From the IMG/VR virus record IMGVR_UViG_3300017700_000166, positions 1 through 49,325 of that record: a stretch of DNA of 49,325 nt. One strand, written 5' to 3'. A program made the translations under genes and the position numbers. The notes under the pieces were generated by a model that was given only the letters and a program-made list of their open reading frames with translations, had not been told where the DNA came from and searched no databases. Shown here piece after piece: positions 1,116-49,318 of the stretch. The number at the start of each line of letters is the position of its first letter. The first letter of the stretch is position 1. The stretch is from a virus (taxonomy: Duplodnaviria; Caudoviricetes).

Positions 1116-1609
1116 TAGAACACCGGGGGTTCGTCGCCGTCAGCTTCTGGCTTGACGTACTCGACTAGCTCATTAACATGTAGGCTGCTAAGGCGCGCTG
1201 CAAATCCCGGCGAACCCTCATACGTGTAGTCGTAGACCTCAGCCTTGACAGTGCAGATGCTTCCGTTGCCGATTGGAGTGCCCTCAGGTACGCCAGAAAC
1301 CGCAGGCGATCCGAGTTCACCAAGCTTAGGATGGCGCTCGTTTCGCCGGAATGTGACATCTCCCTTGACAGCACTGGACTCCTTACCCTTCTTCTTCGCC
1401 TTCAATCCGGCGATCATAACGTCTTCCTCTGACAGGGCTTGCGTCTTGGTACCAAGAGCGTTGTAACGCTTAGCCTCAGCATCGTCGAGAGTCATGATAA
1501 CCGACCAATTGCCACCGGCATTCGGGGTCTGGAACTTCGTATCGACCTGACCCGGCCAGACCTTTGCCCAACGCACCGGACCCGTAAATTCGTAGTACTT
1601 AGTAGCCAT
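1115..1609 (-). CDS. Single-stranded DNA-binding protein (T7 gp2.5-like)
   Basis: G.V.WAKV N-terminus, IGNGS..TVK.EVY motif, acidic C-tail ending in Phe (DGDEPPVF), replication context. Confidence 0.8.
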   Translation of the reverse strand: MATKYYEFTGPVRWAKVWPGQVDTKFQTPNAGGNWSVIMTLDDAEAKRYNALGTKTQALSEEDVMIAGLKAKKKGKESSAVKGDVTFRRNERHPKLGELGSPAVSGVPEGTPIGNGSICTVKAEVYDYTYEGSPGFAARLSSLHVNELVEYVKPEADGDEPPVF

Positions 1610-1833
1610 TAATTCAAAACCTTCGGTTCAATAGTCTGGAACTCAGCGTCGCCCTTGACTTCCTTGACAAGCTCAGGGTCTGCGTCTGAAATACTAATAA
1701 TCTTAAGATCGGGGACTTCGGAGAACGTCTCTAGGACACCCTGCGTAGCCTGCTCGTTGGACTCGGCTTTAACCATAACCGAGGCGCTTTCCGTGTAAGT
1801 CAACTCAACAATCTTGAAGTTGTCATTTTCCAC
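1609..1833 (-). CDS. Hypothetical protein (74 aa)
   Basis: GTG start abutting the HNH stop; TAATG-coupled to SSB. Confidence 0.7.
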   Translation of the reverse strand: MENDNFKIVELTYTESASVMVKAESNEQATQGVLETFSEVPDLKIISISDADPELVKEVKGDAEFQTIEPKVLN

Positions 1834-2142
1834 TTAGTGATGTTTCCTTATCTCGTAGCCGTAGTTACGCAAGAACTCTATTGATTGTTGGATACGGTCT
1901 TCCAGCCGGACACCGGGTGGTTGAGGACGACACCAAAGCTCAAGGTTCTCTATTCGATTGTCAGCGCGGTCACCATTCATATGATGAACGTATTCAGACT
2001 TAAGTAGTTCTCGGCCTAGATGTCGTTCCATAATCAGACGGTGTTGCGCCATCTGGCCACCTCTTGGATTAGGAACAACAATGTAACCGTATCTGTTAAT
2101 GCAACCCGTTCCTTTGGGTCTGCGTTTCTTAGGCAGTATCAA
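1834..2142 (-). CDS. HNH homing endonuclease
   Basis: HRLIMERHLGR.L...EYVHHMNGDRADNRIENLEL motif; TTG start overlaps the polymerase stop. Confidence 0.9.
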   Translation of the reverse strand: MILPKKRRPKGTGCINRYGYIVVPNPRGGQMAQHRLIMERHLGRELLKSEYVHHMNGDRADNRIENLELWCRPQPPGVRLEDRIQQSIEFLRNYGYEIRKHH

Positions 2143-4388
2143 TGTGTGTCAAGCCAGTTGCGGCCAATGGCAATACCACCATGACCAGAGAGAACGGAAC
2201 CCGCCATTGGGCACCGTAGGGAGAGTTCTTCTCCCGCCTGTCGGATGGCGTCGGCTTGCGTTTCCCCTACGATCAAGCCCGCGTCATACGAAGGAACTTC
2301 TGTCTGCCATTCGTCATGCACGAAGTTAACGATCTTAAATGGGACACCCATCGAGATCAGCTTCGGATACCAAATACGCATGGCATGTTTCATCACGGTG
2401 ACTTCACCGTTCTGAAGGTAGCCAGCGAGACAGAAATGTTGTTTAGAGTTAAAGTCTTCGCCTTTGATCTTAACCCATCGTCCGTCAAACCCTTGGAAGT
2501 AGCCTCGCCTAGCATCCTCAGGAATGATATTCTTCTTTACGTGTTTGAGGCCCGGGTAGAACTCGATGAAATTAGATACGGCTTCGGATGCACTATCGTA
2601 AGAGCACTCAAGAATTTGTGCCACTTTGCCGACTCCTGCTCCGAGAAGCCAAGCGTAAATGAAAGTCTTTGCGATATTGCGGCTGCCACATGCGGAACCA
2701 AGCGCGATTTTGTTAAGACTGTGCGGGTCAGTACCATCTTCCTTCTTGCCGGTTAGGAGGGATTGGGTGAACTTTTCATCGTCGATGTAGTGCGCAAGCA
2801 CTCGGAGCTGAATGCTCTCTGCATCGACCCCGACGAGGAAACTTCCTTCGGGACTTGACCACATACTTCGCATCTCAGCTCCAAAGAGGGAGTCTTCGCG
2901 AGCAATGTTGCCAGTATTGGGATTGGTGTGAGACATCCGGCCCGACCAAGCACCAATTCCGTTAAATGATCCATGTATCCTCTGCGTCTGGGAGTTGTAG
3001 GAGTTGATCCATTCAGTCAAAGTAGAACGACGTGAACCCAACATGATCCGGTGGGCCAGCGTCTTGGCGGCTTGCGTTAGCGAGATACTCCTTCGCAAGC
3101 TCTCCGTATTTTTCAGACCACTCCAGCCGAGTATTGCATCCGGTGCAGAGCAATCCACGAACGTTTCCGTTGGTGTGGCAGTGATCGACCACAAGTGCAG
3201 TTGCTGTTCGACAAATGTCGCAGCATCCGTTCCGTTCGGTAACCATTCGCTCATAGTCTTCGATAGAAAGGTTATACTTTCGGCGTAATTGTCGGTCTTT
3301 AGAAGCTCGGGGATTGGCGTGGTAAGTCTCTCGACTCCGACGTCTTCCAGCTTCCTTCTCGCGAGCGTAACGATCGCGGTGGTACTGCCTCCGCTGTTCG
3401 GAAGTTTTATAAGGCACTTATTTAACCAGAGTTCTTGAGGTTCAGTCGAAGGAAGAGTGTTCAAATTCTCTTCTGAAACAGTCCACCCTGTGATGGCGAA
3501 CTTTGCGATCTTTTCTTTGTCTTTATCGCGTATGGCCTTTATGTGGCCCTTAGTCTTTTCCGTGGGCTTCCAGCCTGCCTCGTTTAGTCGTTCGACAATT
3601 TGCGAAGTACTAGCTGGATTGAACGGTTCGTAAGATATAATCGTGAACGGACCGCCATTGAAATCGGTGAGGTCGGAGTCCGTCCATCTAAAATCATTTC
3701 GATTGAATGTTCCAAATTTCGTAAGTCTTGGAGTAACCTCTCGGACACAACGGACCTTAGGAGGGAACGCAGAGATAAGGTGGTCATCCAGTCCTTCTAG
3801 TTCAATACCAATAGTATACCATAGTTCTTTGGCTTTGTCAAGCTCAAAATGAAAACCATTTTCGTGTAGCTCTTGGCATCGTTCAGCAATGAAGTGTTCG
3901 ACCTCAATCGAGGATTTCCACTTAGGTGCGTTGACATACTTCTCGAACTTCTTCCAAAGAGCGTAATTAATCTCGACATCGGAACGGCACCGAACGACCA
4001 TGTCTTCTGTAAAGACACTCCAGTCTTCGATGTCCGCGTGTTCCTTCTTGATACCTAGGCGTTCACCCCACGCCTCTAGCGAATGCCCGCCAGCAATATT
4101 GAAATCAAGAAGACGGGAAAGGACAAGAGTATCAATTTTCCTAGAGTGCTTAGTGCGTTCCACCCAAGGCTGCACCAAGCGCCCAAGCTGAACAAGATCA
4201 TACCCGAGTATGTAGTGCCCAATCCAACAATCAACAGTGTCAGCAAAGCGAAGTAAGGGTCCCGGATCAATATTACATCTACGAAATTCATGGACTTCTC
4301 CAGTATGAACGTCCTTGGCTACAAGACAGTAAATCTCCGTAGGGGTGAGACCGTTGGCTTCAATGTCAAATACTACAGTTTTACCCAT
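2139..4388 (-). CDS. DNA polymerase, family A (T7-like), with a 121-aa insertion in the thumb region
   Basis: ExoI FDIEANG, ExoIII RCRSDV, motif A DAESIQLR, motif B AKTFIYAWLLG, motif C VHDEWQ. Confidence 0.95.
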   Translation of the reverse strand: MGKTVVFDIEANGLTPTEIYCLVAKDVHTGEVHEFRRCNIDPGPLLRFADTVDCWIGHYILGYDLVQLGRLVQPWVERTKHSRKIDTLVLSRLLDFNIAGGHSLEAWGERLGIKKEHADIEDWSVFTEDMVVRCRSDVEINYALWKKFEKYVNAPKWKSSIEVEHFIAERCQELHENGFHFELDKAKELWYTIGIELEGLDDHLISAFPPKVRCVREVTPRLTKFGTFNRNDFRWTDSDLTDFNGGPFTIISYEPFNPASTSQIVERLNEAGWKPTEKTKGHIKAIRDKDKEKIAKFAITGWTVSEENLNTLPSTEPQELWLNKCLIKLPNSGGSTTAIVTLARRKLEDVGVERLTTPIPELLKTDNYAESITFLSKTMSEWLPNGTDAATFVEQQLHLWSITATPTETFVDCSAPDAILGWSGLKNTESLRRSISLTQAAKTLAHRIMLGSRRSTLTEWINSYNSQTQRIHGSFNGIGAWSGRMSHTNPNTGNIAREDSLFGAEMRSMWSSPEGSFLVGVDAESIQLRVLAHYIDDEKFTQSLLTGKKEDGTDPHSLNKIALGSACGSRNIAKTFIYAWLLGAGVGKVAQILECSYDSASEAVSNFIEFYPGLKHVKKNIIPEDARRGYFQGFDGRWVKIKGEDFNSKQHFCLAGYLQNGEVTVMKHAMRIWYPKLISMGVPFKIVNFVHDEWQTEVPSYDAGLIVGETQADAIRQAGEELSLRCPMAGSVLSGHGGIAIGRNWLDTH
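3013..3417 (-). mobile_element. Endonuclease VII-family (putative homing) nuclease nested out of frame within the polymerase gene
   Basis: LRRKYNLSIEDY..M...NGCCDIC...LVVDHCHTNGNVRGLLCTGCN; GTG start; spans almost exactly the polymerase insertion. Confidence 0.88.
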
Positions 4389-4391
4389 TGG

Positions 4392-4562
4392 TCATGGCGT
4401 TACCTTTTTTAGATACTCGTTACTGGTCCGGTAAATATTCCAAGCGTTCGAAGCCTCTCGGTAATCACGCTCAGCACGGATAAGCTCACTTTCTGCCCGT
4501 CGATACGCAACTTGCGCGTTGGCTAGTCTATCCGAGGCGGCACGAACATCGCTTTCCGACAT
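4392..4562 (-). CDS. Small coiled-coil hypothetical protein (56 aa)
   Basis: Translated by hand: MSESDVRAASDRLANAQ...KKVTP; AGGAG upstream. Confidence 0.65.
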   Translation of the reverse strand: MSESDVRAASDRLANAQVAYRRAESELIRAERDYREASNAWNIYRTSNEYLKKVTP

Positions 4563-4861
4563 CACACACTCCTGATGTATTTTTTGACTAGGTCTTTGCG
4601 CTCGTGCTCAAGGAGATTGATAAGGATTTGGTTGGCTGGTTCCTGTTCGAGGAACACCCGCAACTGGCAAATCTCATTACTAATTTCCTTGAGCCGATCT
4701 TCTACGAGAAACCCTTCGACGGGATCAATCAGGTACGTTTTCCTTGCAATACAGTCGGTCTTGGGTGTTGGTGTACGCTGTCTGTCTCTGGCGAGCCTCA
4801 ACCCTTTCGCCGTGCGCTTTCTGCTCAGCCGCTCGCCGCTCTTTAATGAGTAGATCGACAT
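4562..4861 (-). CDS. Hypothetical protein (true start probably near 4730)
   Basis: ORF track; the 5' part overlaps another short ORF in a different frame. Confidence 0.45.
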   Translation of the reverse strand: MSIYSLKSGERLSRKRTAKGLRLARDRQRTPTPKTDCIARKTYLIDPVEGFLVEDRLKEISNEICQLRVFLEQEPANQILINLLEHERKDLVKKYIRSV

Positions 4862-4875
4862 GAGCTTTCATACCG

Positions 4876-5001
4876 TCAGGCATCCATCTTCTCCCGGAGC
4901 TTGTTGCGGAACTCTTCTTCGTCGGTCATCTTAGGTCGGTTCAGGTAGATCATGAAAATACCGAAGACCAGCAGTGCAAAACCAATCGTAAATCCGTTCA
5001 T
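4876..5001 (-). CDS. Small membrane protein (41 aa)
   Basis: MNGFTIGFALLVFGIFMIYL hydrophobic N-terminus; AGGAG RBS. Confidence 0.6.
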   Translation of the reverse strand: MNGFTIGFALLVFGIFMIYLNRPKMTDEEEFRNKLREKMDA

Positions 5002-8323: not shown

Positions 8324-9154
8324 TCAAAGGTATACCATCCGTTCTTTCTTGAACTCTTCATTCAGGCCGAGGAAGTATTCCGCGTAAACGTCTACCGTGT
8401 TGTTTTCCAACCCCGGAGCTGTGTTACCTTCGCAGATAACCGGCTTATCAGAAGGCTGGTGGTACAGGACATCCAATGCCACAAAGTGCATATCGCCGAA
8501 GTGCTTCGCCATAGCGGACCGGGACACAGATACCACGGACGGTGGCACCTTTGACAGGTCGGGGTAGGCTTGGAAGATGAACCCGTTGTCGTGCGAGCGT
8601 ACATCCCATGTCTTAGGCTGGACGGTCTTATCGTCATTCTTCCAGACCTTCCGTTGAACTAGGATGGGTTCAAAGGAGTTCCCGTTGAGGCTGCGAGCCA
8701 TGTGTAGACGGTACTCGTGTGTCTTGGGTTGATGGCGGGTGTAGAGAGGTGCGCTCGGGACAGCGTCCCCCCGTTCAGCGGTCCATACATCAATTCCTCG
8801 TCCACCTGAACCGCGCGTGAGGTTTCGAACAAAGACCTTGCTTCCGGCGTTAACCCATCCAGCAGCTTCTTCCCTGTTCCGTGTCCACGAGAGAAAGTCG
8901 GCATCATGACCTACCTTTTCAAAGAATTTCACCTTGTCGGACATATCGCAGACGTCCTTAGGTGAGTTGATGATCCAGTTGTTTCCCTCGGGGTACTTGA
9001 TCTCCGAGGAACCCCAATTCACGACAAGACACTTCTTGCCCTTCGGCTCGCGTTGCAGGATGTGGCAGATACGGCTGCCCTCGCTGCTGGCGTTGATGAC
9101 TTCCTTGAGACGCTTCGCCGACCGACTCCCAAGCTTGTACGGATGAATGATCAC
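8324..9154 (-). CDS. ATP-grasp ligase (PA11/phiEco32-type)
   Basis: VVNWG, DKVKFF, GSGGRGI loop, EYRLH, ALDV, EGNTAPG. Confidence 0.88.
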   Translation of the reverse strand: MIIHPYKLGSRSAKRLKEVINASSEGSRICHILQREPKGKKCLVVNWGSSEIKYPEGNNWIINSPKDVCDMSDKVKFFEKVGHDADFLSWTRNREEAAGWVNAGSKVFVRNLTRGSGGRGIDVWTAERGDAVPSAPLYTRHQPKTHEYRLHMARSLNGNSFEPILVQRKVWKNDDKTVQPKTWDVRSHDNGFIFQAYPDLSKVPPSVVSVSRSAMAKHFGDMHFVALDVLYHQPSDKPVICEGNTAPGLENNTVDVYAEYFLGLNEEFKKERMVYL

Positions 9155-9282
9155 TGCGGACGCTCCTTCTTGACGAGTTCCATGATCTTATTGAGTATCG
9201 CCGACATGTTGACACCATGTGTATCCATGATGTGATCCCACAAGACGTCTTCGATTTTGCTTTCCAGTTCAGCGTCCGTCAT
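9151..9282 (-). CDS. Small hypothetical protein (43 aa)
   Basis: TAATG coupling to the amidoligase; GGAG RBS. Confidence 0.55.
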   Translation of the reverse strand: MTDAELESKIEDVLWDHIMDTHGVNMSAILNKIMELVKKERPQ

Positions 9283-10298
9283 TAGAACTCCACGTCGTCG
9301 TTGATAACCGGAACCGGCTGAACAGGGAGTGTTCCCCATCCACCAGACTGAGCCGACTGCACAACGTTGGGAGTGGCAAAGAAGGAGCCGCCACCAGTAC
9401 CCGCTGCTACAGTCAGCATATCAGCGTACACTTCTTGCACCGATTTGGTCTTGAAGCCCTTCTTCTTGACCGGCTCAGGTTCCTTCTTGTTGTGCCACTT
9501 CTTGAGAACCTTGGTGAGTTCGTAGGCGTGCTCCGTGCCGAAGTCCACCAGCGAGGTATATCCCGGAACCTTGTAAACGTTGGCACCAAAGATTTTCTGG
9601 GCGTACCACGAAGGGTTCTGGCGGACGTTCTTCCACAGCGTCCGGTAGGTTTTGTCGGACTCAGCACGAGCCATGTCCCGGATAGCGAGCAGCCAGTTGA
9701 CCCAACCGGATACCTGCGTACCGTCGATGCTCATAGGGAAGCAACGAACCTCCAGAGTACCCAGATCGGCGAGACGGCCTGAGTTGAGGGACGAATACTT
9801 GCCACGCTCGTAAGCGAAGCCATAGCTGTCGATCCGTTCAAGGACAAGACACAAAGTGTCAAAACTCTCGATCAGGTCGCCAGTGTCGTACGACGACATG
9901 CAGAAGAGATTGCCGTCGCGCTGGGGACCACACAGGCTCAGGAGCAACGGCTCGAACATGCTGAACACGACGTAGTACCCGAGCATGTCCTCGACCGTCT
10001 CAGGGAGCATGTTGACGTGAACATGGGTCGAACAACGGTAAGTATTCTTTACCGTCGCGTTGTTGTTCTTCATCGTCTGAGCAAGATGATCGACGTACTG
10101 CTTCACCGTGTCAGCCTTGATGGGTTTGGTGATGTACTCCAGTCCGTCCTTGAGGCTGCCCTCGGACTTGACTTGCCAGTGCGTGACATTGCTCGGGAGG
10201 TGGGTGCCTTCGATCTCGATCTCGATACCGACGTCGGCTATTCTTTTGGATCGTTTGAGAACCTCGTGTAGAGGCTTCTTAACAACACTAGCAAACAT
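9282..10298 (-). CDS. Amidoligase (Amidoligase_2 / COOH-NH2 ligase superfamily)
   Basis: GIEIE, EGSL..GLEY, CSTHVHVN, YSSLN, GTLEVR; start set at ATG 10298. Confidence 0.85.
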   Translation of the reverse strand: MFASVVKKPLHEVLKRSKRIADVGIEIEIEGTHLPSNVTHWQVKSEGSLKDGLEYITKPIKADTVKQYVDHLAQTMKNNNATVKNTYRCSTHVHVNMLPETVEDMLGYYVVFSMFEPLLLSLCGPQRDGNLFCMSSYDTGDLIESFDTLCLVLERIDSYGFAYERGKYSSLNSGRLADLGTLEVRCFPMSIDGTQVSGWVNWLLAIRDMARAESDKTYRTLWKNVRQNPSWYAQKIFGANVYKVPGYTSLVDFGTEHAYELTKVLKKWHNKKEPEPVKKKGFKTKSVQEVYADMLTVAAGTGGGSFFATPNVVQSAQSGGWGTLPVQPVPVINDDVEF

Positions 10299-10302
10299 AG
10301 TA

Positions 10303-11178
10303 TCACCCTTGCGGTCGCAGTTCCAGATTGACTTCTTTAGCCGAACGACTAATCCACTGCTGGAGAAGATCGTCCTCATCGTTGACAAGAACATCATTGT
10401 CCTTGATCTTTCCTAGGGCACGCCCACGGTAGCACGCTATGACGCCTTCTTCGGTGCGCTTGACAGCGATGTCGTCAGACAGCCTTGTGACAGGGAGATC
10501 GCCAGAACTAACCAGCGAAGACATAGTCTCGTCCCAACGGCGAAGCTGACGGCTACCAAGCCCACGGACGAGCTTATTGACATCAAGCCCACCCGTATGT
10601 CCCTGCGAAGCCACATCCTTCAGGAGCGTATTGTGCCGGTTGATCCCCTGCTGGTAGACACGGCCGGGGATACGGCACAGCCACCCAGTAGAACCAGCTT
10701 GAGCGTACATAGGCGGGATGGTACGAAGGTCTTGGATGTCGCTGTAACTAATCTGCGACAGATTGCTACCCCCGTTGGTCAGAGCAAGCTGCCAGCCAGC
10801 CCCTTCCTTGTTCTTGATCTTAGCCACCAGAAACGGATGGCCTTTGATCGAGATCACCGTGTTGAGAAGACGCAGTTTGATTTCCGCGTAGGTCTCGTAA
10901 TCGATCTTGAACGGCGACAACTCACGACGACGCAAAGGCTTGGCTTCGATGGCATCGAGATTAAGCTGGTTGTAGGTCCACTCGTTGCCGAAGTAAGGCT
11001 CGCTGTACCAATCCGTGTATAGATGGTTGACGAGTTTGATTTCGTCTTCTTCCGTCCATGCCGGACCCGGCCGATGATCAGAGTTGTACAGGATTTTGTC
11101 AGCACGCCGCTGCTCGAAGTGATGGGCGTACTGGTTTTCTTCAAAGTAAGAACTGCCGGGTTTCTGCAACCACGCCAT
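10303..11178 (-). CDS. Hypothetical protein within the amidoligase cluster
   Basis: 291-aa ORF with AGGAGG RBS between two ligases. Confidence 0.8.
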   Translation of the reverse strand: MAWLQKPGSSYFEENQYAHHFEQRRADKILYNSDHRPGPAWTEEDEIKLVNHLYTDWYSEPYFGNEWTYNQLNLDAIEAKPLRRRELSPFKIDYETYAEIKLRLLNTVISIKGHPFLVAKIKNKEGAGWQLALTNGGSNLSQISYSDIQDLRTIPPMYAQAGSTGWLCRIPGRVYQQGINRHNTLLKDVASQGHTGGLDVNKLVRGLGSRQLRRWDETMSSLVSSGDLPVTRLSDDIAVKRTEEGVIACYRGRALGKIKDNDVLVNDEDDLLQQWISRSAKEVNLELRPQG

Positions 11179-11179
11179 G

Positions 11180-11998
11180 TCAACCTCCTACGGCTTCTTC
11201 CAACGACGGATGAAGCTCACGCCACTTAGTGATACCCTGATCGATGACGTCGCGAGCCAGCCCGTCGAACTCGTCGTCTAGGACACGTCCTTCATTGAGC
11301 AGACGGAGTGCCCGGATAGCGCCTGTGTACACCATCGTTGTATGCTGGACTGACAACAGCCACATCGGGGACAGCGTCCGGTATTCCATCCCGTAAGGCT
11401 TGGGGCGGAATGATCCGGCTTTGCCGTAGAGTTCACGCCGAGTCTTGTCAGTGTCGAAGTCCAGACACGACATACCGATCGTGTAGTCGAGTTGCTTAGC
11501 GACATCAGCGCAGAGGCCAATGTGTGCCATGCTCTCCGGATTGAAATCCGAACCCCAACCGATATGAATATGACCTCCGCTAGTGCGGAAGTTACCAGTC
11601 GCGTCAGGACGTTCGTTCTCCCGAAGTTCATAGGCATTCCAGTCCGGGTTGCAGCCGAGTTCCTTTGCGGTTTCCGGCAGGCTCTCGATGTAAGCCGGGG
11701 TGAAGAACGCCGTGGGACGGACGATCAGGTACATCTCGGGGTCGGCTTCCTTGACGAGCTTCTCCAAGTCCTGCACCACTGCGGTACAATTCTTGACAAA
11801 CTCGAAGCGGGACTTGCTCGGCCGAACGTTTACTTCGAGAGCCATCCCGTCGACCTGTACCGATCCATTGTCGGTGTCGCGGGGCTTGGCCTTGGTGCCG
11901 AACGGAAGCCAGTGGGCAGAGATGATTTCGTCGCGCTTTCCGACGAAGATTTCGGGGTCTGCACCGATAGTGATATTAGCGAGATCAAACTGAGACAT
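11180..11998 (-). CDS. phiEco32-like COOH-NH2 ligase type 2
   Basis: IGADPEIF, VQVDGMALE, LGCNPD, GGHIHIG, RRELYGKAG, GMEYRTLS. Confidence 0.92.
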   Translation of the reverse strand: MSQFDLANITIGADPEIFVGKRDEIISAHWLPFGTKAKPRDTDNGSVQVDGMALEVNVRPSKSRFEFVKNCTAVVQDLEKLVKEADPEMYLIVRPTAFFTPAYIESLPETAKELGCNPDWNAYELRENERPDATGNFRTSGGHIHIGWGSDFNPESMAHIGLCADVAKQLDYTIGMSCLDFDTDKTRRELYGKAGSFRPKPYGMEYRTLSPMWLLSVQHTTMVYTGAIRALRLLNEGRVLDDEFDGLARDVIDQGITKWRELHPSLEEAVGG

Positions 11999-12016
11999 AA
12001 TAAAGCTCCTACTGCC

Positions 12017-13321
12017 TTAACAGGCCATGCCGACCATACGTTGGACATCGAGGTCTTGGATACATCCCTCACAGACGTATTCACCGCGCGTGTCCGTGAA
12101 ACGAACCGGGAAGATTTTTGGGCTCTTTCCCTCAACGAACAACGGCTTCTGCGAACACCATACGCAAGGAGCACCTGAGACCAGATCGACGATCTTTTTC
12201 TTGTCCTTGCACGCGTAGTAATCAAGGTCTGACGTCTCACGACCGAGAAACGTCCCGCTGTTTACAGCAGCCTCCTTCGCCAGCCGTTCACGCTCGGCCT
12301 TGGCTGTGGCAAGCTCTGCATCACGCTTGGAGTTGCTGAACACGAGTGCACAGTTGATCGATGTGACAGGCGTACCTACCGCACGATCCGTACCCGTATT
12401 ACGCTGACGATGTTCAGGAGGAACATAACTAAATCCGGCGTTACCGGGTCTTGTTATGGCGACGCTGGGAACGCTTCCAGAGTTTTGCGTTGCGACGCTC
12501 CTGTTTCGTTCCAAAGGGGTTTGGTTCTCACCCAACCAGCCCTCCCAGTCTGAAGCGTAGGGCGTCGAAGAAGCAAAAGGGGTGCGTTCACACTTTGTGA
12601 TTGTCGCATCCGCAAGGTTTGTCTTGACATCCAGAGGAAACGACCAATGCTCGTTCTTCGGAAGGAAATAGAACTTATGCTTCTCCTTGACGAAGTTAGA
12701 GTACCGGCCCAACGCCATGTGCAGGAAGCCGGCCTCAGAAGCCCACCAGAAGTTGCGGACCGGTGACGACTCCATAATGCTGTTGCGTTCTTCGCAGATA
12801 GCAAGAGGCCGTTCGTTGTTGCGCAGGAAGTTCAGCGTCTGGTTACGCAGATCGATCCAGACGAGGCAGTACGCACCCCAAGACGAGTCAGCAAAGCCCT
12901 GCGGACCTTTCTTGGCGATGGTACGACACACCATCTTGCTGTCGGATGCGTCCTTCGGAACTGACTCGTCGCCGACGTAAGTCATCGTGCCGTTGTGGAC
13001 AAGAATGACGTCCTCGAAGCGGTGAGGGTGGACATTCTCGATCTTCGTGCTGCCCTTCGTGGGCTGGCGAGCATGGCCGATGAGGATATTGGTATCGCCC
13101 TTGACGCACTCGTCGTAGTCTGAGGTCGTAACGAGATGGCCGCTGCTCCACGTCGTCCGCTTGACGCGAATGGCATTGCTGTGGATCACAGACTTCTTGG
13201 GTACGGCAATCATACCGGCCCCTTCGTCGCCGCGCAACTGCGCCAGAACCATAAGGTCCTTGAATTTCTGGAGTTCGCCATAACCGAGATTATGACCCAT
13301 AACTCCGACGATACCGCACAT
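12017..13321 (-). CDS. Class II (Ntn) glutamine amidotransferase with C-terminal Zn-finger-like region
   Basis: MCGIVG catalytic Cys, RG..GAG, GHAR..T, HP, HNGT, DS; C-terminal CxxC...CxxC. Confidence 0.92.
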   Translation of the reverse strand: MCGIVGVMGHNLGYGELQKFKDLMVLAQLRGDEGAGMIAVPKKSVIHSNAIRVKRTTWSSGHLVTTSDYDECVKGDTNILIGHARQPTKGSTKIENVHPHRFEDVILVHNGTMTYVGDESVPKDASDSKMVCRTIAKKGPQGFADSSWGAYCLVWIDLRNQTLNFLRNNERPLAICEERNSIMESSPVRNFWWASEAGFLHMALGRYSNFVKEKHKFYFLPKNEHWSFPLDVKTNLADATITKCERTPFASSTPYASDWEGWLGENQTPLERNRSVATQNSGSVPSVAITRPGNAGFSYVPPEHRQRNTGTDRAVGTPVTSINCALVFSNSKRDAELATAKAERERLAKEAAVNSGTFLGRETSDLDYYACKDKKKIVDLVSGAPCVWCSQKPLFVEGKSPKIFPVRFTDTRGEYVCEGCIQDLDVQRMVGMAC

Positions 13322-13331
13322 ATTCTGCTCC

Positions 13332-13970
13332 TTAGGTCATCATGGCGCGTTTGACACAGTCAAAGAACAAGTCCTTGCACGACTTCAGACCCCACTCAGG
13401 GTGAGGCTGAAAGCACAGGGACTTAGTGGATTTGTAGTAGATGACCTCAGGATCATCTGCGTGGTGCTTAGGCATGATTTCTTCACGCAATCCCGTAGCC
13501 TTGAGAGTGCTTCGGCCACACCATGCCCACACCATAGCGCCCGAACCGGGACGCATCATCTGGTGGTGGTCTGACGTGACAGGGACGTCGTGTACTTCAC
13601 CGTTCTCGTCAATGTAACGAACAGGGTGGGAACAATTATTATGGCGTGTGACATGCTGATAGAGCTTGCCTTTGTTGAGCGCGTTAAGAAGCTGCGCCCC
13701 ACGACAAATCCCAATCAGCATCTTCTTCTTGTTGCGTGCGGCCTCGAAGATACCGGTTTCGACGCGATCACGCTCACGATCTGGAGATTGGGTCATCTTG
13801 TGGACAACCATCTCGCCGTAGATACTCGGCTGAATGTCCGTGCCGCCCGTGAAAATGACAATGTCAGCATCTTTGATGCCCTTTACGGGGATCGCCAATG
13901 CCGACACCATCATGTCGTGGATTGCTACGTCACCGCCGACGATATAAAACCGCCAGCCTTGCAGCATCAC
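13332..13970 (-). CDS. Class I glutamine amidotransferase / peptidase C26-like
   Basis: TGGTDI.P..Y, GICRGAQ nucleophile elbow, S.HHQ, QPHPE. Confidence 0.92.
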   Translation of the reverse strand: MMLQGWRFYIVGGDVAIHDMMVSALAIPVKGIKDADIVIFTGGTDIQPSIYGEMVVHKMTQSPDRERDRVETGIFEAARNKKKMLIGICRGAQLLNALNKGKLYQHVTRHNNCSHPVRYIDENGEVHDVPVTSDHHQMMRPGSGAMVWAWCGRSTLKATGLREEIMPKHHADDPEVIYYKSTKSLCFQPHPEWGLKSCKDLFFDCVKRAMMT

Positions 13971-48736: not shown

Positions 48737-49040
48737 TCGGGTTGTTCACGATCTCCGCAGGTTCGTACTTGGCGTGTGCCTTAACGAACATTGTACGTAT
48801 ATAAGGAAGTAACTTCGGGACGATACGACGGAACAACGGACCCTCAGCGACTTCGGCTGTCAAGCCGATCTGAGAAACACGGGTAGCCCCTCCAATGTAA
48901 GCATGGAACTGCCACTCCCACTTCTTCTCGAATTTGTCATACCGACGGATTACTTCGAACTTCTTACCGAACGTTTCGTGGTACCACGCTTGCGCTTTAC
49001 TGATTTCTTCTTCGACTTGGACTTCGGGGGTACTAGCCAT
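48729..49040 (-). CDS. Hypothetical protein
   Basis: ORF track; overlaps neighbours. Confidence 0.6.
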   Translation of the reverse strand: MASTPEVQVEEEISKAQAWYHETFGKKFEVIRRYDKFEKKWEWQFHAYIGGATRVSQIGLTAEVAEGPLFRRIVPKLLPYIRTMFVKAHAKYEPAEIVNNPNE

Positions 49041-49318
49041 CCTGTGTACGGTCCTCTGAGATACTCTGCTGCTGCTGATAAAAGCTCAACGCCCCCGAGT
49101 TCTCGTCTATGCCTGCCAATAATTCTTCGGTTACAGTTTGTACAGAGCAGGCCCCTGATTTCTCCCGAATGATGGTCATGGTCAACGGATAGTCTGACTT
49201 TAAATTCTCTAGAATGCCTTCGACATACTGCGCAGCAAAGTCGCTGCCGCTCCAAGAGAGTTTCATACTGTTCCTCCGTTATTCCGTAGGTTCGTCTGAG
49301 GTGGCTCGCTCTGGTCAT
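48950..49318 (-). CDS. Endonuclease VII-family nuclease (free-standing)
   Basis: YGITEEQY, CAVC, VDHDH..GEIRGLLCTNCN; ATGA-coupled to the exonuclease across the circular join. Confidence 0.9.
   Translation of the reverse strand: MTRASHLRRTYGITEEQYETLLERQRLCCAVCRRHSREFKVRLSVDHDHHSGEIRGLLCTNCNRRIIGRHRRELGGVELLSAAAEYLRGPYTGWLVPPKSKSKKKSVKRKRGTTKRSVRSSK

Follow-up and report, generated by a model that had tools for sequence, protein, structure and literature searches.

Introns and inteins are the textbook ways in which homing endonucleases spare the essential genes that they occupy. An endonuclease can also sit inside or beside an essential phage gene with neither of them, as in mobE/nrdA of Aeh1, where the gene is split, and in T4 gene 60, where a stop-containing gap is skipped. 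Closest to the locus described here are the ShiLan domain and Pacc40 gp60, reported as hidden insertions with an out-of-frame HNH nuclease (Arsenault, Gosselin and Gogarten 2025, PMC11855218). Overprinted nucleases have also been found within inteins. For example, actinobacteriophage inteins can carry an EndoVII-like endonuclease in frame 3 (Gosselin et al., bioRxiv 10.1101/2025.01.02.630785), and a cyanobacterial dnaX intein has a comparable overprinted layout (10.64898/2026.09.14.751524). A further point of reference is the DHHRN family of homing endonucleases, which includes F-CphI and is defined by the catalytic residues D, H, H, R and N together with zinc motifs; as described in PMC6083498, its members include intron-encoded enzymes in genes for the DNA polymerases of phages Berlin, YpP-G and LUZ24.

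The stretch of DNA analysed (the window, 49,325 nucleotides) is a complete phage genome of 49.3 kb with terminal repeats. Positions 2139 to 4388 of its minus strand encode a T7-like family A DNA polymerase (PolA) of 749 residues including the insert, with motifs A, B and C intact in sequence. The reading frame matches Pfam DNA_pol_A (E = 5e-30), T7 DNA polymerase is the best match of its predicted fold (E = 5e-29), and no second polymerase was found among the 31 ORFs of the window that were scanned. The nearest PolA proteins, at 36-41% identity, are those of Roseobacter and Lentibacter podoviruses, which we take to be members of the Zobellviridae. Two other features of the genome can be mentioned here: an HNH endonuclease gene, another likely mobile nuclease, adjoins and overlaps the polA stop codon (1834-2142, minus strand), and a phiEco32-like cluster (8324-13970, minus strand) encodes an ATP-grasp ligase, an amidoligase, a COOH.NH2 ligase and two glutamine amidotransferases.

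Within the polymerase gene lies an insertion element which, in the register shared by its family, follows the residues TLP and precedes AA (3072-3449, minus strand). The TLP and SRxxTL motifs are 138 aa apart in the window PolA and 17 aa apart in three insert-free proteins, so the net insert is 121 aa, which agrees with the extra 363 nt counted in a first-pass annotation. The closest relatives align to residues 2-317 and 440-749 (62-78% identity). The 121-aa stretch itself, read in the polymerase frame, has no match in Pfam, PHROG or NCBIfam, and a tblastn search with it in 50,697 annotated phage records found none either. Alignment to T7 polymerase (with the region names that we assume for that enzyme) puts the site in the thumb, C-terminal to the thioredoxin-binding-loop region; the first-pass annotation had the thumb right, but its tip-loop position is corrected to one between the 'DEVLEGV' segment and the 'QAAIDLIKEY' helix, immediately ahead of the long thumb helix.

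The ends of the element keep a common register in same-site inserts. On the 5' side this reads TLP, seven residues, Trp, three residues and a Cys containing the nuclease start, and on the 3' side Ile-Ser, three residues and then the host helix. The span across the site, measured in 11 other carriers, is 138 aa in 4 of them, as it is in the window, and 130-153 aa in the rest. The register of the family suggests that the element starts about four codons before the CAAG junction discussed below (at ~3449), where it may have replaced a 5-residue xxAPx loop. The 5' linker, STEPQELWLNK (3417-3449, minus strand), is read in the polymerase frame only and is predicted to form a short helix; its Trp codon, four codons before the nuclease start, is kept (W in 9 of 15 same-site carriers). 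At the 3' end (3072-3107, minus strand), the polymerase-frame reading is a predicted extension of the following thumb helix. In the case of two carriers, P0016 (the same as L285) and P0018, the host motif TLPxxAP has been rebuilt in the polymerase frame at this end of the insert.

The hidden gene is an Endonuclease VII/DHHRN-type ORF of 134 aa with a GTG start (3013-3417, minus strand). It occupies the third frame, +2 (= -1) relative to PolA on the same strand, and its last 20 codons overlap the resumed polymerase sequence. It matches Pfam Endonuclease_7 (E = 1.2e-15) and aligns to T4 EndoVII 1e7d (E = 2.6e-8), so that the ORFs and Pfam together bear out the earlier reading of an EndoVII gene in a shifted frame inside a PolA insertion whose host frame stays open. 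The catalytic core (3133-3222, minus strand) consists of C66, C69, D78, H79, H81, R87, C91, C94 and N95, all invariant in 5/5 aligned overprinted nucleases; the DHHRN residues and both flanking CX2C motifs, with all four zinc cysteines, are thus kept. A separate EndoVII gene, likely a resolvase, lies at 48950-49318 (minus strand) after an exonuclease gene, in a position conserved in relatives, which makes the hidden gene a second EndoVII copy. It is this separate gene, rather than the hidden one, that has the conserved, vertically inherited, single-gene character of a resolvase.

The layout is that of the ShiLan type: an in-frame, stop-free insertion with a nuclease ORF in the third frame, no detectable intron or intein and a patchy distribution. 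The likeness extends to details, since ShiLan and gp60, as described, also start their nuclease at a GTG some 18-20 nt in, have no clear ribosome-binding site and carry an insert that is proposed, from sequence alone, to be kept as a loop (PMC11855218). The uniqueness implied by the first-pass annotation was therefore overstated. However, the window element falls outside the ShiLan sequence family while working like a ShiLan insertion: that family has an HNH nuclease in a DNA methylase which its authors call non-essential, whereas here an EndoVII/DHHRN enzyme lies in a replicative PolA.

At the window site (site A), the insert is absent from all 80 related viral PolA loci (2 of which end short of the site), and the nearest insert-free relatives are 75-78% identical in the polymerase domain. 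The insertion-free alleles expected from a PolA alignment were thus found, and with insert-free sisters the segment is not a conserved domain carried by all homologous polymerases. The same layout occurs about 25 residues downstream (site B) in 4 of the 80 loci. Scanning metagenomes gave two further same-site carriers (L183 and L224) and one partial carrier at site B, and a scan with a nuclease profile gave one carrier with the insert before motif A (site C, L091) and two nucleases inside terminase inteins. A shadow profile, made from the polymerase-frame reading of seven inserts and searched in 1.84 billion representatives, returned 33 matches. The best 17 of these were all PolA (12 at the window site, 3 at site B only, 1 at site C and 1 at a fourth thumb site); the other 16 matches were weak and mostly to short proteins, in addition to an intein-bearing terminase and a helicase. 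One PolA of 849 aa, P0010, has shadow-frame inserts at both site A and site B. A DNA-pattern scan found 47 loci, among them 5 PolA carriers (4 distinct) and 3 that are open without a PolA host; further searches added two site-B proteins and one more carrier protein, and a scan with P0009 gave no locus.

After deduplication, these searches amount to 30 distinct PolA carriers at four sites, 16 at the window site and 14 at the three others. The nuclease frame was read in DNA for 12 of the 30 and was the same relative to the host in 12/12; for the other 18 it was inferred from the protein profile. The 5' linker of the insert is similar to the host sequence EWIN of site B, a hint that the element may have taken some flanking sequence along in a move between the sites, whichever direction that took. 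A phage helicase, P0038, has an insert of ~180 aa that gives a weak shadow-profile match (E = 3e-4) and no intein match and is absent in 80/80 relatives; judged by its sequence, this is a possible second host gene.

How surprising is an open host frame? For a stop to appear there, a Leu, Ile, Val or Met codon of the nuclease has to be followed by a suitable base. With the nuclease protein kept fixed, the chance that the window frame is open is 0.13 by synonymous resampling and 0.12 by codon shuffling, because only 11 codon junctions can make a stop; the figure of 0.3% proposed initially was too low. The significance of the open frame comes from the family and not from the single case. The 11 inserts that are complete at the DNA level contain no stop, against an expectation of 28.3, although this joint figure is overstated because carriers share ancestry and are not statistically independent. 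Free-standing EndoVII genes read in the same frame have a mean of 4.6 stops and are open in 1 of 39 GC3-matched genes and 5 of 100 overall. Two PolA-anchored scans that took no account of frame found 7 distinct non-self EndoVII inserts inside PolA, all 7 of them open. The search for more out-of-frame EndoVII ORFs and for stop depletion that the first-pass annotation had called for therefore gave a positive answer.

These figures also bear on whether the locus might be a frame left open by chance in an inactive polymerase allele, or an artefact of assembly. The single-case probability of about 13% is not small, and the insert region, while intact on one contig with no joints, was found in only one public run, which may be the source of the sequence, so that the real argument against a chimera lies in the independent carriers. 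With 30 distinct carriers, intact polymerase motifs, a complete genome with terminal repeats and no other polymerase among the 31 ORFs scanned, we find this explanation scarcely credible.

Beyond being open, the host frame is likely also tuned by selection, in that the synonymous codons used for the nuclease leave the loop neutral in charge when it is read in the polymerase frame. An Arg or Gly codon of the nuclease that ends in GA is read as Asp or Glu in the host frame; such codons account for 148 of 231 in the inserts and 223 of 653 in matched free-standing genes, and the host-frame net charge per residue is 0.008 against 0.097. Even in a resampling that already forbids stops, 97 host-frame Asp and Glu residues are expected where 144 are seen, and a net charge of +63 is expected where +10 is seen; 3 of 11 inserts lack the effect. 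At four-fold sites, third-position identity is 0.61 compared with 0.30-0.39. Once stop-prone codons are left out it is 0.56, against 0.37 in matched and 0.46-0.49 in closer free-standing pairs, so the excess is smaller with stricter controls. Third positions are nevertheless the most variable in 15/15 pairs, which means that the nuclease frame dominates and the host frame is the weaker constraint. Charge tuning of this kind would be expected of a translated and retained loop on a DNA-binding enzyme and is not needed by an intron or a bypassed gap.

Structure prediction is consistent with such a loop. When AlphaFold was given mostly insert-free homologues, the mean pLDDT was 86.6 and the insert scored 45-63; with 15 carriers, pLDDT fell below 50 over residues 326-425 with the exception of one residue. 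The model thus has a confident polymerase core and an unstructured insert. The insert ends are predicted to be helical, with a short helix at 316-324 and an extension of the thumb helix at 428-439; the predicted thumb helix is continuous over 428-463, with a pLDDT of 87 at residues 431-440. The thumb also likely tolerates disruption, since PolA is split there into two genes, with small unrelated ORFs between them, in 4 of 80 relatives (L055, L058, L067 and L076). In L067 the split lies at ~3840-4310, and in L076 a primase-helicase lies between the PolA halves.

An alternative is that the insert is removed from the RNA, by a minimal or trans-assisted intron, or is skipped by the ribosome in a bypass like that of T4 gene 60. 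What speaks for it is a CAAG direct repeat, matching CAA-G sites that flank an exact 363-nt stretch in the window copy. The repeat is real, as the first-pass annotation had it, but the weight put on it was too great: it is absent from the junctions of five other same-site DNA loci, no conserved junction repeat was found among the same-site loci, and a role as target duplication or hop site was rejected, leaving it incidental. A bypass of the gene 60 type pairs a take-off codon, which is followed by a stop, with a matching landing codon; here the matched CAA codons occur in the window only, and no stop follows the supposed take-off codon. As for an intron, only ~30 nt lie outside the nuclease ORF, too little for a ribozyme core, as had been argued, and structured non-coding flanks are lacking. 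Rfam gave two chance-level matches in window positions 1500-5000, both outside the insert, and none in 10 carrier loci, and the RNA of the insert folds no better than its shuffles (z = -0.54), which also holds for the start regions. Since an open, charge-tuned host frame would not be needed either, we regard removal from RNA and bypass as very unlikely.

Loss at the protein level is harder to set aside, because it requires the open frame just as much. The insert could be translated and then removed by non-canonical splicing, or its loop cut by proteolysis, leaving a ligated or two-chain polymerase. The thumb-split relatives indicate that two chains are likely tolerated, a site-B insert (L072) happens to run from Cys to Asn-Thr, and related nucleases lie out of frame inside true terminase inteins (L102, L150 and P0035). 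On the other hand, no Hint or intein match was found for the window insert, nor by Pfam in 17 carrier polymerases, in a scan that detects the P0035 intein. The window insert does not have the Cys or Ser first, His-Asn last and Cys, Ser or Thr next that mark an intein; junction residues vary at the site, the residue after the insert being mostly Ala, and no folded domain is predicted within it. These observations bear on splicing; protein-level loss as a whole, proteolysis included, is unlikely in our estimate, and the suggestion of removal by an unrecognised mechanism found no support in any intron, intein or RNA-structure signal. We therefore return to a loop that is translated and retained.

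Signals for expression of the nuclease are modest. Shine-Dalgarno pairing at the GTG is -2.7 kcal/mol, no better than the background of out-of-frame starts (median -3.3). The start codon has the same register in 4 of 6 same-site loci and lies four codons closer in a fifth. Immediately ahead of the window GTG the nuclease frame has a stop codon; of the 6 same-site loci, 3 have a stop immediately ahead of the nuclease start. The loci are divided on whether the conserved Trp codon might serve as a Shine-Dalgarno core, with -5.7 to -7.3 kcal/mol in 5 of 11 and background values in the other 6, window included. A strong, near-consensus sigma-70-like promoter inside polA (3813-3841, minus strand; TTGACA-17-TATACT with extended -10) lies ~400 nt upstream of the nuclease start. 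It has the same position in the insert-free loci L001, L004 and L006 (11-12 of 12 matches) and, going by its motif, could be the source of the nuclease transcript without being part of the element. Only four sites in the whole window have at least 11 promoter matches, and many loci of another clade have a similar sigma-70 promoter near PolA codon 300. There is no slippery heptamer in 3001-3500, which, together with the stops ahead of the nuclease start in 3 of the 6 loci, led us to reject a fusion of PolA and nuclease by -1 frameshifting.

Mobility was assessed on trees built with FastTree. In a nuclease tree of 95 columns with modest support, the nucleases of six same-site loci group as a single clade (SH 91), separate from that of the conserved resolvase-like genes; the same tree does not resolve the site-B nucleases as a clade. 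On a tree of 127 PolA proteins, the 15 same-site hosts require 13 changes (shuffled mean 14.4), of which 9 are forced by strongly supported branches, and the sister of the window PolA is insert-free. In these sequences, one nuclease clade is scattered over the PolA tree as homing would give. The element is optional, has insertion-free cognate alleles and recurs at the same site in hosts that are not a clade. The flanks yielded no co-conversion tract: relatives are too distant, and shared flank residues are common in insert-free alleles as well; co-conversion based on a shared 'SRRSTL' was dropped for the latter reason.

The nuclease might instead be a passenger in a permissive loop, or a domesticated enzyme serving in recombination, host DNA breakdown or competitor exclusion. 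The EndoVII motif also serves resolvases and restriction enzymes, as noted in PMC6083498, and the translation signal in the window copy is weak. However, a conserved EndoVII is already present elsewhere in the genome, distant polymerase lineages with insert-free sisters have nucleases of a single clade at exactly the same site, and the distance across that site is identical in the window and several other carriers. A passenger or domesticated enzyme appears unlikely, and homing is the preferred reading.

Compared with the overprinted inteins, the window element has the nuclease class of the actinobacteriophage examples and the relative frame of both those and dnaX, with the host frame open in all of them (10.1101/2025.01.02.630785; 10.64898/2026.09.14.751524). 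In those inteins self-splicing removes the shadow peptide, whereas the window insert has no splicing domain. The nuclease shares the CX2C - DHxH - R - CX2C - N motif and a phage DNA polymerase host gene with the F-CphI/DHHRN enzymes, which are described as free-standing or in group I introns (PMC6083498); the window nuclease has no intron. With respect to ShiLan and gp60 as reported, the PolA family adds four sites, a double carrier and a measured selection on the host frame. In the main texts of openly available papers, no report was found of a phage DNA polymerase with an out-of-frame nuclease and neither intron nor intein. Unlike Aeh1 mobE/nrdA and T4 gene 60, the window has a continuous host frame.

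We consider it probable that the locus is a homing nuclease gene in an essential polymerase gene, read through without splicing as a disordered loop on a helical stalk. The proposal of a mobile nuclease that leaves its host gene unharmed through dual coding and a tolerated loop is thereby upheld, by insertion-free alleles, 30 carriers, stop depletion and codon selection. In outline, a likely homing EndoVII-type gene lies within the polymerase gene in a shifted frame, and the likely polymerase product is a single chain of 749 residues with the insert as a predicted disordered, unspliced thumb loop. The nuclease would be made at a low level by internal initiation at its GTG and, during co-infection, would cut insertion-free polA alleles near the site, after which repair of the cut allele would transfer a copy of the element. 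The other frame would be kept open by selection on the essential host, with its charge near-neutral and its ends helical so that the thumb can fold. We also lean, if only slightly, towards a wider reading, a splicing-free third way for homing nucleases in essential genes. Here the shadow frame would be an evolved adaptor, a helical stalk with a charge-neutral flexible loop and in some copies a rebuilt host motif, which lets one EndoVII lineage colonise several surface loops of replicative polymerases, even two at once, invisible to annotation.

Provided that the polymerase is functional while carrying the loop, dual coding by itself suffices even in a replicative enzyme, and the methylase case of 2025 is no exception that depends on a dispensable host. 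The carrier family is a natural series for studying how selection shapes a new reading frame, with stops removed and charge neutralised via the synonymous sites of another gene. The carriers also map four loops of T7-like polymerases that likely tolerate ~100-135 extra residues. Finally, long 'variable insertions' in phage proteins can hide genes missed by annotation, and a shadow-frame profile finds them.
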